Assembly (NCBI GenBank): GCA_000996205.1
Contig: LBYO01000003.1
Location: 1-41,582 of the forward strand
Source of the DNA: Parcubacteria group bacterium GW2011_GWA1_40_21
GTDB lineage: Bacteria > Patescibacteriota > Minisyncoccia > Phycocordibacterales > GWA1-40-21
Direction of reading: 5' to 3'
DNA: 41,582 bases
Part shown: positions 80 through 23,603 of the stretch, in pieces
How positions within the stretch are numbered: the stretch's first letter is position 1
How the letters are laid out: every line of letters begins with the position of its first letter
Notes under the pieces: model-generated
Seen by the model: the letters and a program-made list of their open reading frames with translations, nothing else
The model's database searches: none
What the model was told of the DNA's origin: nothing
Program-made: the position numbers and the translations under genes

Positions 80-823
80 ATGAACACTAATATTATTACA
101 AAAAAACTCTCCCCTAAAAAGCTAAAAAGCTACCCGCCCGCCACGACTGCTGTCGGGCATGTCGGGCGCGGCAAGCTACAAGCTAACCGTTTTCATCCAT
201 CAGCTTCCCGAAACCTACAACTCCGCCTCATCGGCGGACGAGCCACAACCAAAAACCCAACCTCATCGGCGGGCAGGCTACAACCTAATCGCGGTTTCAC
301 CCTGATTGAAATGCTCGTCTCAATTTCCGTCTTTATGGTGGTTATGCTTGTCGCCGCGAGCTCGCTTTTGAGCATTATTGACGGCAACAACAAAGCCCAG
401 TCCCTGAAGTCCGCGATAAACAATTTGAATTTCGCACTTGAGAGTATGCAGAAAAATATAAGGGTGGGAACAAGTTATTCGGGGGGTGGGAGTTGTTCTC
501 CCGCCGATACTTGCATAATCTTCGATTCCTACAAAGACCTTAATGGTGATGGTAATATGGATAATGATACTGTTATATATAAGTATAATGATACCGAAAA
601 ATCAATAGAGAGATGTGAGAATATCTCAGGCGTAACTTGTAGTTTAAGCAGTAATTTCACCAGATTGACCGCGCCGGAAGTAAAAATAACTGATATGAAA
701 TTTTATATTGACAGCAGTTCTCAGCCAAGAGTCTTGATTACCATAAGTGGCGAAGCGGGAACTAAGGAAAGAATAAAAACAAATTTTAATCTTCAGACGA
801 CCGTATCGCAAAGATCATTCTAA
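80..823 (+). CDS. Type IV minor pilin (PilW/PulJ-like) with an abnormally long, repeat-derived leader
   Basis: Class III signal G|FTLIEMLVSISVF followed by a hydrophobic helix; about 72-aa leader; DLNGDGNMD Ca-binding-like motif. Confidence 0.88.
   Translation: MNTNIITKKLSPKKLKSYPPATTAVGHVGRGKLQANRFHPSASRNLQLRLIGGRATTKNPTSSAGRLQPNRGFTLIEMLVSISVFMVVMLVAASSLLSIIDGNNKAQSLKSAINNLNFALESMQKNIRVGTSYSGGGSCSPADTCIIFDSYKDLNGDGNMDNDTVIYKYNDTEKSIERCENISGVTCSLSSNFTRLTAPEVKITDMKFYIDSSSQPRVLITISGEAGTKERIKTNFNLQTTVSQRSF
134..172 (+). repeat. 39-nt GC-rich module A, identical copy at 939-977
   Basis: ccgcccgccacgactgctgtcgggcatgtcgggcgcggc occurs twice, 39/39 identical, in different reading frames. Confidence 0.95.
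211..294 (+). repeat. 84-nt module B, copy at 1513-1596
   Basis: 83/84 identical; contains the palindrome tccgcctcatcggcgga, ggcgggcagg and ACCTACA heptamers. Confidence 0.95.
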
Positions 824-843
824 TTGAGTAAGATACAATCTAT

Positions 844-1494
844 ATGAAATTTATAAAAATAATAAAAAATAAAATCCTAGCCGCCAGTTGCAATTTGTCA
901 TGCGTCAGGAAACTCTTCCCTAAAAACCTACCACCTATCCGCCCGCCACGACTGCTGTCGGGCATGTCGGGCGCGGCCGCCTACAACCTACAACCTTCCG
1001 CCAAAGGTTTCACCCTCATAGAAACTCTCGTCGCCATCTCAATCCTTATGGTCGCGGTCGCGAGCCCCTTAACTATCGCCCAGAAAGGATTAGCTTCAGC
1101 TATCTATGCCAAAGATCAAATCATCGCCTCTTATCTGGCGCAAGACGCGATAGAATACATAATAAACGCGAGCGATAAAAATGTCGCGGATGGAAAAGGC
1201 TGGCTTCTGGGAATAAGCGATAATTGCGGAACGGCTTGCGCGGTTAACACAAGAATAGACAGCGGAATTGCCTCTTGCGCTGGAACTTGCGACGCTCTTA
1301 ATTACAACGAGTCAACAAATATTTACAGCCATGATTCTACAGGTGGTGACAATAAAGCGTCGCCATTCACGAGAACAGTTAAAGCTACAGAAGGTCCGAC
1401 CGACGAAGCGCTGATTACCGTGACGATGTCTTGGAAAGACAAAGGAGCTGATAGGAGCCTTAATTTTTACACGAGAATATTTAATTGGAGATAA
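844..1494 (+). CDS. Type IV minor pilin (PilV/PulI-like)
   Basis: G|FTLIETLVAISIL motif; A..LAQDAIE helix; C-terminal F.R.V / ITVTMSW; long leader. Confidence 0.88.
   Translation: MKFIKIIKNKILAASCNLSCVRKLFPKNLPPIRPPRLLSGMSGAAAYNLQPSAKGFTLIETLVAISILMVAVASPLTIAQKGLASAIYAKDQIIASYLAQDAIEYIINASDKNVADGKGWLLGISDNCGTACAVNTRIDSGIASCAGTCDALNYNESTNIYSHDSTGGDNKASPFTRTVKATEGPTDEALITVTMSWKDKGADRSLNFYTRIFNWR
939..977 (+). repeat. Module A, second copy
   Basis: Identical to 134-172; flanked by ACCTAC(A/C) heptamers. Confidence 0.95.
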
Positions 1495-1501
1495 TAATAT
1501 T

Positions 1502-2086
1502 ATGGCAAATAAAAACCTACCACTCCGCCTCATCGGCGGACGAGCCACAACCAAAAACCCAACCTCATCGGCGGGCAGGCTACAACCTAATCGCGGATTC
1601 GCGATGCTGTTTTCCGTCCTCGTATCCAGCTTGCTTGTCGTTATCGGACTGTCAATCTTCAACATCACCCTCAAAGAATTGACCATTTCAACCTCGGCAA
1701 GAGAATCTCAGACGGCTTTTTACGCCGCCAACAGCGGACTGGAATGCGCCCTTCGGTGGGATAATTTAAATGGAAATGGCTTAAGAAGCGCCTTCGCTTC
1801 CACTTCCGCTTCGGATGAAATTGACAGTGCCAAAAGCGTAATAGCTTTATGCAATACCGTGAGAGTAAACAGCGCCACCTCCGCCACTACGGAATTTGAA
1901 TTTAAAGTAAATAACTCGGGTGATTCCAATGGTCCTTGCGCCAAAGTTAAGGTTGTAAAGACTCCCGGTTCTCCGACTGTTGAAAAGATGACCACGGTAA
2001 TTGAATCTCGTGGCAAGAACATTTGCGACACAAGCGGCAGAAGAGTTGAAAGAGGCTTGAAAGCCACTATAATTACGCAGATGTAG
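1502..2086 (+). CDS. PilX/PulK-like minor pilin
   Basis: G|FAMLFSVLV (no Glu at +5), S..AFYAANSGLECAL, C-terminal IESRG...R.VERGL. Confidence 0.85.
   Translation: MANKNLPLRLIGGRATTKNPTSSAGRLQPNRGFAMLFSVLVSSLLVVIGLSIFNITLKELTISTSARESQTAFYAANSGLECALRWDNLNGNGLRSAFASTSASDEIDSAKSVIALCNTVRVNSATSATTEFEFKVNNSGDSNGPCAKVKVVKTPGSPTVEKMTTVIESRGKNICDTSGRRVERGLKATIITQM
1513..1596 (+). repeat. Module B, second copy
   Basis: 83/84 identical to 211-294. Confidence 0.95.
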
Positions 2087-2164
2087 CCAGGCGAAGCTCG
2101 TAGCTTTTTAGCTTGTTAGGTATAAGATTTTTTTCTAAAAACCTACAACCCGCTACCTAATAAT

Positions 2165-21910: not shown

Positions 21911-21920
21911 ATTAAAAACT

Positions 21921-22037
21921 ATGGCAAGCAAGAAAAGAAAAGTTTCCAAATCTCCTTCAAGAAAGCTTAAGGTAAAATCCGTTAAAGGGAAGAAAAAATC
22001 TAAATCTTCAAAAGGGAAAAGCAAGAGAAGAAGATAA
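21921..22037 (+). CDS. 38-aa Lys/Arg/Ser-rich basic peptide (not in the ORF track)
   Basis: MASKKRKVSKSPSRKLKVKSVKGKKKSKSSKGKSKRRR*; followed by a terminator. Confidence 0.7.
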   Translation: MASKKRKVSKSPSRKLKVKSVKGKKKSKSSKGKSKRRR

Positions 22038-22064
22038 GCTCGTATTGCGGAAAAAGATTTTGCT

Positions 22065-22095
22065 AAAAACATTGCGTCTTAGACGCAATGTTTTT
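22065..22095. terminator. Bidirectional intrinsic terminator
   Basis: aaaaacattgcgtct-t-agacgcaatgttttt, between convergent genes. Confidence 0.8.
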
Positions 22096-22247
22096 GCGTT
22101 CCATTCACCTTAAGTCAAAGGACATTTTTTCTGTTATTCCCGTCTCGAAGCAAGATTCGGGATAAATTCCGGCGGGAAACCGGATTCAATCATTTTTGAT
22201 CAGAATTTCGCAAGCGAAATTCTGTGGGTATCTGATACCCACAGAAT

Positions 22248-23603
22248 TTAATTTGAAATATGCTCAGATTTACCCGACGAACTTCCGGCCACGAAGCCTG
22301 TCGTCCAGCAGAGCTGAAGGCTGTAGCCGCCCGAAGGGCGGTCTATGTTCAAGATGTCGCCCGCGAGATAAAGGTTTGGAAAAAGGCGGGAGCTCATTGT
22401 TTTGAAATCAATTTCGCGAAGTGAAACCCCGCCACTTGAGACGATGGCTTTTTCCGCGCCGAGCAATTTGTCGGCGCGAATCGGAATATTTTTCAAAATA
22501 TTCACGAGCGCCAGTCTTTCTTCGCGGGTGATGCTGTTGCACTCCGTGTCGGGATTGATTTTTGACATTTCCACTATCGCCGAAGCGAGCCCCGCCGCGA
22601 GCGGAGCGAGCGCGTGAAGAGCGTTCTTAAATTTTTTACTGTGATTTTCTTTGAATAATTCTTGAAGTTTGAGGTTAAGCGCGCCGTGATTTTCCGATGG
22701 GAATAAATCAAGCGAAATTATGACCTCTCCGTATTTCAAAAGTTCTCCGATACTCCTGCTCATATTGAGAATTGCCGGACCGCTTAGTCCGAAGTGCGTA
22801 AAAATTATTTTTCCTTTGTTTGTTTCTTGCTTCGCGTCGTTTTGGAAAGTGGCGATTTTGACATTAGCAAGACTTAATCCGGCGAGTTTCTTGACCCAAT
22901 CGTCTTTTACTGCGATCGGGACAAGTGAAGGTGCTGGTTCAATCACGGCGTGACCGATTTTCCGAAGCCATGCGAAGCCGTCGCCGGTTGAGCCGGTTTC
23001 CGGACGGGAAGTTCCGCCTGTCGCGATTATGACTTTGCGCGCCAAAATTTCTTTCCCGTCTTTTACTTTGATCACGCATACTTTGTCATCCCCGTGAAGA
23101 CGGGGATCCAGACTCGCATTGATTAAATCCAGATTCCCGCCTGCGTGGGGATGACAATTCGAGTTAATGTCCATCAAAATATCAACAACAGGAGAATTTA
23201 AAATAATTTCCACTTTATTTTTCTTAAGATATTTCAAGAGCGCGTCAAAAACAGTTTTGGCATTGCCACTCACGGGGAACACCCTTTGCTCATTTTCAAT
23301 TTTTGTTTCAACTCCGCATTTGTGAAAAAATTCCAATGTCTCTTTGACGCTGAACTGTGAAAAAGCGGAAAATAGAAATTTTCCGCCATTTTTGAATTTT
23401 TCCAGAAATTTTCGCGTGTCAAATTCAGCATTGGTAAGATTGCATCTGCCTCCGCCTGTGATAAGAAGCTTTTTTCCTAATGAGTCATTTTTTTCTATCA
23501 AAATAACTTTTGCTCCCAATTCCGCCGCCCTTCCCGCCGCCATCATCCCCGATGGCCCTCCGCCAACGACGGCAACATCATATATGATTTCGGTTTTCTT
23601 CAT
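22248..23603 (-). CDS. HI0933/YhiN/BaiN family flavoprotein
   Basis: GGGPSGMMAA, GKKLLITGGGRCNLTN, ATGG.S.P.TGSTGDG, FTHFGLSGP, SGGYSLQ.CW.TG. Confidence 0.96.
   Translation of the reverse strand: MKKTEIIYDVAVVGGGPSGMMAAGRAAELGAKVILIEKNDSLGKKLLITGGGRCNLTNAEFDTRKFLEKFKNGGKFLFSAFSQFSVKETLEFFHKCGVETKIENEQRVFPVSGNAKTVFDALLKYLKKNKVEIILNSPVVDILMDINSNCHPHAGGNLDLINASLDPRLHGDDKVCVIKVKDGKEILARKVIIATGGTSRPETGSTGDGFAWLRKIGHAVIEPAPSLVPIAVKDDWVKKLAGLSLANVKIATFQNDAKQETNKGKIIFTHFGLSGPAILNMSRSIGELLKYGEVIISLDLFPSENHGALNLKLQELFKENHSKKFKNALHALAPLAAGLASAIVEMSKINPDTECNSITREERLALVNILKNIPIRADKLLGAEKAIVSSGGVSLREIDFKTMSSRLFPNLYLAGDILNIDRPSGGYSLQLCWTTGFVAGSSSGKSEHISN
23084..23156. repeat. 73-nt REP-doublet element inserted in frame in the HI0933 gene
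   Basis: tgtcatccccgtgaagacggggatccag-17 nt-ccagattcccgcctgcgtggggatgaca; twin of 8699-8771. Confidence 0.92.

Follow-up and report, generated by a model that had tools for sequence, protein, structure and literature searches.

Hairpin repeats read in frame inside genes of a Parcubacteria genome, and candidate transposases for their spread

Repeats inside genes of the contig

We analysed contig LBYO01000003.1 of Parcubacteria group bacterium GW2011_GWA1_40_21, in which palindromic or repeat DNA lies in frame inside protein-coding genes. The window, meaning the whole stretch of DNA that was analysed, is this entire contig of 41,582 nucleotides (contig C3 of the source genome, G000). The assembly of this bacterium, which belongs to the candidate phyla radiation (CPR), has 760,931 bases in 26 contigs, is 97.7% complete by marker genes and has a size typical of CPR; the runs holding its sequence are labelled as groundwater metagenomes, with no RNA run among those listed. 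With translation table 11, the genes of the window are long open frames, most of which were named by Pfam. Rfam at gathering thresholds found one tRNA in the window and nothing else. Known riboswitches were dropped as candidates on this result, and CRISPR was dropped because there were no arrays of CRISPR form. The genomes used for comparison are three congeners (G001, G002 and G003) and further relatives in the order, which also bear G numbers.

The original prediction, made from the sequence of the window, placed in-frame repeats in seven genes: three prepilin genes, ligA, uvrB, uvrC and an HI0933-like gene. The three leaders, ligA and the HI0933-like gene are firm cases. The uvrB insert is real but weakly palindromic and unique, and the uvrC case is weak. 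These sites, together with an intergenic twin of one of them, are as follows (REP, repetitive extragenic palindromic; the REP-C and dRS3-like families are listed in the next section).

80-295, plus strand: leader of prepilin 1, 72 aa, ending at G72/F73 (FTLIEM)
844-1008, plus strand: leader of prepilin 2, 55 aa, with a 39-nt hairpin at 939-977 and then a heptamer array at 980-996
1502-1597, plus strand: leader of pilin-like gene 3, 32 aa, with an RG/FAMLF motif
2512-2567, plus strand: REP-C doublet in ligA, in frame, just upstream of the KxDG motif
12877-12984, plus strand: 35-aa insert in UvrB with imperfect terminal inverted repeats CCCCCACACCTTG / CAAGGTGAAGGGG; single-copy
17508-17528, plus strand: small hairpin TTCCAAGG-GGAGT-CCTTGGAA in UvrC, between conserved Cys residues; a weak case
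23085-23155, minus strand: 71-nt dRS3-like element in the gene of an HI0933-like flavoprotein, in frame, encoding CHPHAGGNLDLINASLDPRLHGDD
8700-8770, no strand assigned: intergenic 71-nt twin of that element, with two dRS3-like hairpins (ATTCCC-N8-GGGAAT type) and likewise GTCAT..ATGAC ends, upstream of tgt

In ligA, two ACTTGG..CCAAGT hairpins in inverted order make up a perfect palindrome with a 23-bp stem, and the 123-nt stretch containing it has a fold energy of -60.8. LigA is about 17 aa longer at this site than its more distant orthologues, and different palindromes occupy the site in five genomes (G000, G003, G001, G002 and G024).

The 71-nt unit of the HI0933-like gene consists of two inverted hairpins with GTCAT..ATGAC ends. 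This gene is 69 nt longer in G000 than in G001 and G002, and here an orthologue indel coincides with a palindrome, a comparison that the original prediction had suggested for LigA, UvrB, UvrC and HI0933; for ligA the length difference is relative to distant orthologues, and the uvrB insert is only weakly palindromic. We found six full copies of the two-hairpin unit in G000, which are 71-73 nt long with a spacer of about 25 nt, and no longer arrays; five of the six have a length of 2 mod 3. Mapped on a predicted structure, as the original prediction had suggested, the HI0933 insert occupies a loop between two strands, where the predicted local distance difference test score (pLDDT) is below 50; the model is moderate (mean pLDDT 66.7, 11 sequences), which makes the loop placement weak support. 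The same site has dRS3-like units in G008 and G007 that are absent from their sister genomes. Target-site duplications are unreadable at the HI0933 site, the flanks having diverged. The HI0933-like orthologues in G001 (L029) and G002 (L028) have one in-frame stop each in the matched span, and G003 gave no match for this gene, which may be decaying in the genus.

The UvrB insert is missing from all three congeners, whose flanks are 91% identical. Its terminal inverted repeats match at 11 of 13 positions, and two fold tests gave z of -2.1 and +0.4. At the same uvrB site, hairpin-forming inserts are found in G014 (fold z -3.1) and G020 (-5.7), and a weaker one in G009 (-1.8). The uvrC hairpin has a stem of 8 bp, a length that chance often produces: such stems number 119 in coding DNA versus 78 in codon shuffles. 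The only support for this site is a second copy of its 21-mer, at 95% identity, in KsgA (C6:57082-57102), which is thereby 6 aa longer than in G003.

Repeat-built leaders of 72, 55 and 32 aa precede the G/F pair in the three pilin-type genes at 80-2086. The usual type IV pilin leaders are far shorter than 32-72 aa. The leader of prepilin 1 holds a 39-nt hairpin (134-172), a TCCGCC..GGCGGA hairpin (222-238), CTACAAC heptamer-type motifs and two CCTCATCGGCGG units (226-237 and 261-272); two repeat units, of 13 and 12 aa, are missing from its orthologue in G003. Pfam N_methyl (PF07963) matches residues 70-92 of prepilin 1, which has no alternative in-frame ATG, GTG or TTG upstream of G/F, and residues 53-73 of prepilin 2. 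The third gene has no Pfam match and is called pilin-like by its RG/FAMLF motif and its G003 orthologue. The 39-nt hairpin exists in three copies, each in a pilin leader, and prepilins 1 and 2 read it in different frames. Positions 211-298 and 1513-1600 of the window are 98% alike, and 117-185 and 922-990 are 84% alike. The leaders of the G003 pilins are likewise made of repeats.

All prepilins seen in the genus, including those at C7:21927-22514, C19:5485-6027 and G003 C20:14389-17141, have a leader of 32-72 aa that ends in heptamer-encoded ..LQP(S/N)xG/F. The PilD peptidase gene is at C7:22716-23567. Contig C7, which carries PilD and another pilin, breaks off (23500-23780) within a pilin leader matching the leader repeats of the window (1-80). 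It probably joins the window start, with the contig break probably due to the repeats. The gene order in G003 is a REP-associated tyrosine transposase (RAYT) gene, PilD, four pilins and ligA.

Hairpin families and transposase genes of the genome

We then investigated the whole of G000. Perfect hairpins (stem of at least 10, loop of at most 12) number 213, against 16, 18 and 23 in three Markov shuffles, and dispersed copies exist; this excludes the possibility that the repeats are no commoner than in shuffled sequence. By location, they divide into 149 intergenic, 49 coding and 15 gene-edge hairpins. These labels come from a crude gene call (727 genes based on open reading frames (ORFs), 81% coding), which was checked with Pfam for 15 host proteins only and gave a domain in 14. 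Coding stems of at least 11 bp number 31, versus about 1.6 in codon shuffles. G000 carries at least five dispersed hairpin families and a heptamer array:

REP-A, pattern TTGGACATC-N-GATGTCCAA: 10 copies, 1 coding
REP-B, pattern TGTGGGTATC-N-GATACCCACA: 25 copies, 1 coding
REP-C, ACTTGG..CCAAGT: 28 copies, 8 coding and 2 at gene edges
dRS3-like, ATYCCCG..CGGGRAT: 16 hairpins, 1 coding
TCCGCC type, TCCGCC..GGCGGA: 21 copies, 8 coding
Heptamer arrays, (CCTACAA)n: 84 arrays, 69 intergenic and 9 coding

Every dispersed family pattern has 0.0 matches in shuffles. The expectation that related repeats also occur between genes was borne out for all of these families, the twin at 8700-8770 being the case for HI0933. 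Nesting, which had also been proposed, is found at two loci where REP-C lies in the loops of other REP-C copies (C10:17982-18032 and C16:20878-20928), and inverted doublets are seen at C5:10764-10809, C4:42234-42292 and ligA 2512-2567. All nine coding heptamer arrays are in sense orientation, as expected because the opposite strand reads TAG every 21 nt. The repeat-host genes identified by Pfam include GatB, MiaA, PilD peptidase, glycosyltransferase, Fpg, IleRS, TIM, TsaD and KsgA. By an informal count, DNA-repair genes are frequent among about 17 hosts (LigA 2165-4237, UvrB 11551-13701, UvrC 17014-18267 and Fpg C16:29409-30365).

No transposase was found in the window by Pfam, in agreement with the original prediction. 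For the genome the statement fails, since G000 has two Y1/HUH transposase genes (PF01797) on other contigs, with scores of 37.0 and 35.1 bits where the cut-off is 23. Both are flanked by cognate hairpins, which is the arrangement that the original prediction had suggested looking for. RAYT-1 (C5:10835-11536) lies between a REP-A doublet and a REP-A copy and contains one more copy in frame, and RAYT-2 (C9:4034-4801) has six REP-B copies around it. The sole NCBIfam match for either protein is REP_Tyr_transpos (NF047646). In an alignment of RAYT-like proteins, 10 of 10 share the N-H-x-H motif and the Tyr, and a profile of these proteins reaches IS200/IS605 TnpA structures weakly (E 0.008). The RAYT-like family has at least 3895 relatives; among the 120 listed, 21 have a source name, in all cases just 'transposase' or 'putative transposase', and of the 10 with an organism given, 8 are from Parcubacteria, Patescibacteria, Harrisonbacteria or Minisyncoccia. 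As for other mobility genes in G000, IS110/Piv-type recombinase (PF01548) gave no match and TnpB (PF07282) an 18-bit match only, under the cut-off. The tyrosine recombinase family is represented by one Xer-like gene away from the repeats; other DDE and serine recombinase families were not searched.

Y1 genes are present in 21 of 31 genomes of the order, and cognate, genome-specific hairpins flank them in G024, G026, G027, G001, G002 and G003 (C26). In two relatives, the link between RAYT-flanking and in-gene repeats is direct. Within 4.8 kb of G001, one 21-mer occurs six times: once at the ligA variable site, once at the ligA 3' end, twice in the adjoining RAYT ORF and two more times downstream of it. 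The ligA site of G024 holds two copies of a 13-mer that is also found once on either side of the RAYT gene of this genome. RAYT-like ORFs themselves contain in-frame copies of their own flanking hairpin, one in RAYT-1 and two each in G001 (L003:3361-4029) and G002 (L004:831-1496). The copies in G001 and G002 bracket the HUH..Tyr core and encode KLGSSTPKS and FGGETAKLV, twice each.

Further copies of these families lie in the window:

11491-11509, no strand assigned: REP-A hairpin TTGGACATC-A-GATGTCCAA, intergenic, on the upstream side of uvrB; the family that flanks RAYT-1 (C5)
22217-22249, no strand assigned: REP-B hairpin TGTGGGTATC-T-GATACCCACA with a stem of 16 bp, located where the HI0933-like gene has its 3' end; RAYT-2 (C9) is flanked by this family
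4819-4925, no strand assigned: inverted heptamer arrays (AGGTTGT)n .. (ACAACCT)n, intergenic
2100-2160, 6069-6125, 21862-21920, 28401-28525, 28855-28987 and 32129-32171: similar heptamer arrays

The REP-B hairpin at 22217-22249 has A and T flanks, which give it a terminator-like look. Another element, of 130 nt with inverted ends TTGAATCAC..GTGATTCAA, has at least 10 copies in G000, with window copies at 19230-19370 and 25790-26040. The copy at 19230-19370 provides the ATG of the longest gatC ORF, in which the Pfam GatC domain begins at residue 55; the 36-aa N-terminal extension of GatC that it would encode is probably false. A composite unit, in which a TCCGCC..GGCGGA hairpin stands beside a TCCTCC..GGAGGA hairpin, has nine intergenic copies (for example, C14:18681, C7:20058 and C2:48424); its second arm is a Shine-Dalgarno-like GGAGGA, which would be locked in the stem. 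IleRS (C4:35239-38823, 1194 aa) has an entire histidine-phosphatase domain (PF00300, residues 526-691) inside its catalytic domain, and TCCGCC and other hairpins lie near residues ~246-281. Positions 32567-39637, in a part of the window where G+C is raised (0.48-0.51 versus about 0.40), encode a protein of 2356 aa whose domains are Ig-like, CarboxypepD_reg, fn3 and peptidoglycan-binding.

Gain, probable selection and other explanations

We then compared the whole genome of G003 with G000 across 323 orthologue pairs. Inserts of at least 4 aa number 60 specific to G000 and 27 specific to G003, and stems rarely reached by random coding segments (p_stem <=0.04) are present in 5 and 2 of them, respectively. 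G003 lacks the G000 inserts in GatB (12 aa), PilD (5 aa) and KsgA (6 aa). The insertions in HI0933, uvrB, GatB, PilD and KsgA are thus lineage-specific, because same-genus orthologues are without them. GatA, on the other hand, has a 10-aa TCCGCC doublet in G003 and none in G000. This doublet and the G000-only inserts therefore indicate that copies were gained by both lineages after their split.

In window genes the claim that no frameshifts result is correct; genome-wide it is not. Outside the window, lepA (EF4; C23:7472-9368) is interrupted by a cluster of repeats, namely a TCCGCC doublet and a CCTCATCGGCGG unit, and falls into two frames. Between the RM codons and YNLNLID there are 130 nt in G000 (1 mod 3) versus 51 nt, in frame, in G003. 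Either this lepA is a pseudogene or the assembly is wrong in a region rich in hairpins. Insertion is not frame-aware, because lepA is split, the length of the 71-nt unit cannot be divided by three and the 39-nt hairpin is read in two frames. Therefore, the open frames in the window are best explained by selection.

Our preferred reading, to which we give a probability of about 0.7, is that a REP/RAYT-type system is at work in this CPR genome and that in-frame insertions in tolerant loops survive selection, with an outcome like that of Rickettsia palindromic elements (RPEs). Several families of 15-30-nt hairpins would be involved, some as REPIN-like inverted doublets and one as a 71-nt two-hairpin unit, and RAYT-type Y1/HUH transposases of single-stranded DNA (contigs C5 and C9) are proposed to drive their spread. 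Copies would land anywhere and most of those in genes would be lost, while genic copies would persist if they are stop-free, a net multiple of three and located in tolerant loops or N-terminal leaders. Lineage-specific peptides in LigA, the HI0933-like protein, GatB, PilD, KsgA, Fpg, IleRS and the prepilin leaders would be the result. We infer from sequence that the RAYTs catalyse the spread; in G000, the REP-C, TCCGCC and dRS3-like copies would have been mobilised in trans, or else by a RAYT since lost or missing from the assembly. That the same protein sites are hit repeatedly presumably reflects selection for tolerant loops, and a RAYT adjoining ligA, as in G001 and G002, would add local hopping at the ligA site. 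The RPE-like addition of peptides to core enzymes put forward in the original prediction is thus upheld in its outcome, the peptides being absent from close relatives. As to the activity that it also asserted, the lineage-specific insertions suggest that the repeats may be active now.

Several observations weigh against this reading. The RAYT-flanking families, REP-A and REP-B, are nearly all intergenic (33 of 35 copies), and no G000 RAYT stands next to REP-C, TCCGCC or dRS3-like copies in the assembly of 26 contigs and 97.7% completeness. The NF047646 scores of the two proteins (35.7 and 30.1 bits) are far under the cut-off of 80, and a single-sequence search of solved structures with RAYT-1 returned no transposase. 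A GTAG/CGTC foot tag is found in 0 of 28 REP-C, 0 of 10 REP-A and 3 of 25 REP-B copies (CGTC). Only about 9 of the 60 G000-specific inserts are repeat DNA, counting heptamer and TCCGCC-type units, and 15 of the 60 fall in one giant repetitive protein; most G000-specific indels are therefore ordinary. The uvrB insert has no second copy in G000 or 30 relatives and hence belongs to no repeat family. Coding hairpins in UvrA (15777-15805), TIM and MiaA go with no difference in length from G003 and are native or old. The three pilin-leader copies of the 39-nt hairpin would be explained equally well by gene conversion among paralogues. Finally, no presence/absence polymorphism was seen in contigs of four runs at 85% likeness, which are noisy short pieces from many organisms; among the contig joints listed from these runs none skips an insert, and with 442 more joints existing this is uninformative on polymorphism.

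The repeats of this clade might also be more than tolerated passengers: their insertion might be targeted and some of the units might be in service, in which case the system would be an inbuilt source of variation in loops and leaders for a tiny genome that can afford little else. Targeting is conceivable because the loops of LigA, UvrB and the HI0933-like protein were hit repeatedly, in different genera and by different families, and service because of the long heptamer-ended prepilin leaders (..NLQP(S/N)xG/F) and the REP copies kept in RAYT ORFs. Copies on either side of the RAYT catalytic core could allow self-regulation. We consider this version unlikely. It is rather improbable that the palindromes are not mobile and were built locally by template switching or hairpin-primed repair at fragile sites. 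Such local formation would fit the different palindromes at orthologous ligA sites (G000, G003, G001, G002 and G024) and likewise at uvrB (G014, G009 and G020), the perfection of many palindromes and the uniqueness of the uvrB insert. However, the in-gene units belong to dispersed families (28, 21 and 16 copies) and are identical, in G001 and G024, to the units that flank RAYT genes; copies of one unit are found nested in each other, and one arm of the HI0933 element lacks homology to the ancestral sequence of the site.

Homologous recombination or gene conversion as the main route of spread, without a transposase and chiefly among pilin leaders, would account for the confinement of the 39-nt hairpin to three such leaders, for the 98% likeness of 211-298 and 1513-1600 within one gene cluster and for the repeat-made leaders of G003. 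As it cannot put a 71-nt element or a REP-C doublet into the unrelated, single-copy HI0933, GatB and PilD genes, which offer no flanking homology, we hold this to be quite improbable as the general mechanism. The hairpins could also be selected functional structures, such as mRNA or DNA signals tuning the expression of repair genes: a hairpin is kept at the ligA site in five genomes despite changing sequence, and repair genes appear over-represented among the hosts (LigA, UvrB, UvrC and Fpg), as in other phyla (PMC3733652). The inserts in HI0933, GatB, PilD, KsgA and UvrB are nevertheless missing in sister species, the repeat units are mostly intergenic, the 39-nt unit is read in different frames and lepA is broken by a repeat cluster, all of which makes this explanation very improbable in our view. 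Assembly artefacts of a metagenome-assembled genome deserve hardly any credence. Contigs do break at repeats, as where C7 ends within a pilin leader matching the window start, and the lepA frameshift could be an assembly error; yet frames stay open across the inserts, similar inserts are found in independently assembled genomes, and the uvrB insert is covered, with 5 differences, by a contig of 339 nt assembled from a run of another study.

Relation to known repeat systems

As a kind, the phenomenon is already known from intragenic REPs in other phyla (PMC3733652). That source (Di Nocera et al. 2013) reports such REPs in uvrA, uvrB, DNA ligase, polymerase and tRNA synthetase genes of Proteobacteria, Opitutus and Rickettsia, counts some RPEs as REPs, and notes a bias to repair genes in other phyla without explaining it. 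The repeated hits in DNA-repair genes of G000 echo that unexplained pattern. We found no description of RAYT, REPIN, REP or palindromic elements in CPR in the literature searched, most subscription journals lying outside it.

If our reading is right, the phenomena known as REP/RAYT and RPE would reach into a major radiation of uncultivated bacteria. CPR genomes are minimal and thought to be streamlined; G000 still has at least five hairpin families and two repeat-associated transposases, and repeat copies persist in essential genes for ligase, excision repair, tRNA amidotransferase, tRNA synthetase and the pilus machinery. Annotators should be aware that repeat DNA may underlie long pilin leaders, N-terminal extensions (as in GatC) and unusual loops of CPR proteins. 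The inserts may also serve as natural experiments in the tolerance of protein loops to insertion.

RPEs are about 100-150 bp long, each encoding a conserved peptide (review PMC10969869, citing Ogata et al. 2000, 2002). Like RPEs, the G000 repeats are palindromic, lie in frame in unrelated housekeeping genes of a small genome whose close relatives are without them, form several families and add peptides where the protein tolerates them. Unlike RPEs, the units are 15-71 nt long and have no fixed peptide, the 39-nt unit being read in two frames, and a candidate transposase is present in G000; the likeness drawn here is one of description. The 71-nt and 130-nt (19230-19370) elements resemble MITEs (miniature transposable elements with inverted repeats) in that they have terminal inverted repeats, encode no ORF themselves and occur in multiple copies, and in-frame fusion with host ORFs is known for bacterial MITEs (PMC10969869).

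The neisserial dRS3 is a 20-bp inverted repeat, ATTCCC-N8-GGGAAT, whose arrays flank RS elements of 50-150 bp (PMC1797815). G000 has 14 exact matches to this pattern, all intergenic, versus 0.05 in shuffles, and its units are two dRS3-type hairpins around a spacer, as in neisserial dRS3/NIME. In contrast to the neisserial elements, only single units and no long arrays were found, the spacer is about 25 nt, G000 has no IS110/Piv-type recombinase, and one copy is translated in a gene, the HI0933 copy being a variant, ATCCCC..GGGGAT. The match to dRS3 may be convergence rather than common descent.

The closest comparison is with REP/REPIN-RAYT systems. Here too, several short hairpin families exist per genome, mostly extragenic and often as inverted doublets; Y1/HUH genes are flanked by their own family; and, as for intragenic REPs in PMC3733652, a minority of copies lies inside genes, notably those of uvrA, uvrB, DNA ligase and tRNA synthetases. 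Classical REPs have a conserved GTAG or CGTC tetranucleotide at one hairpin foot (PMC3733652; PMC6006769), whereas the G000 hairpins are mostly perfect palindromes without a conserved tag of this kind and number tens of copies, not hundreds. The G000-type proteins, at 220-275 aa, form a distant clade below the NCBIfam RAYT cut-off. Also unlike the classical systems, RAYT ORFs of G000, G001 and G002 contain their own REP in frame, every pilin leader, in G003 too, has translated heptamer arrays, and the host is a CPR genome, a group for which the literature searched gave no such description.

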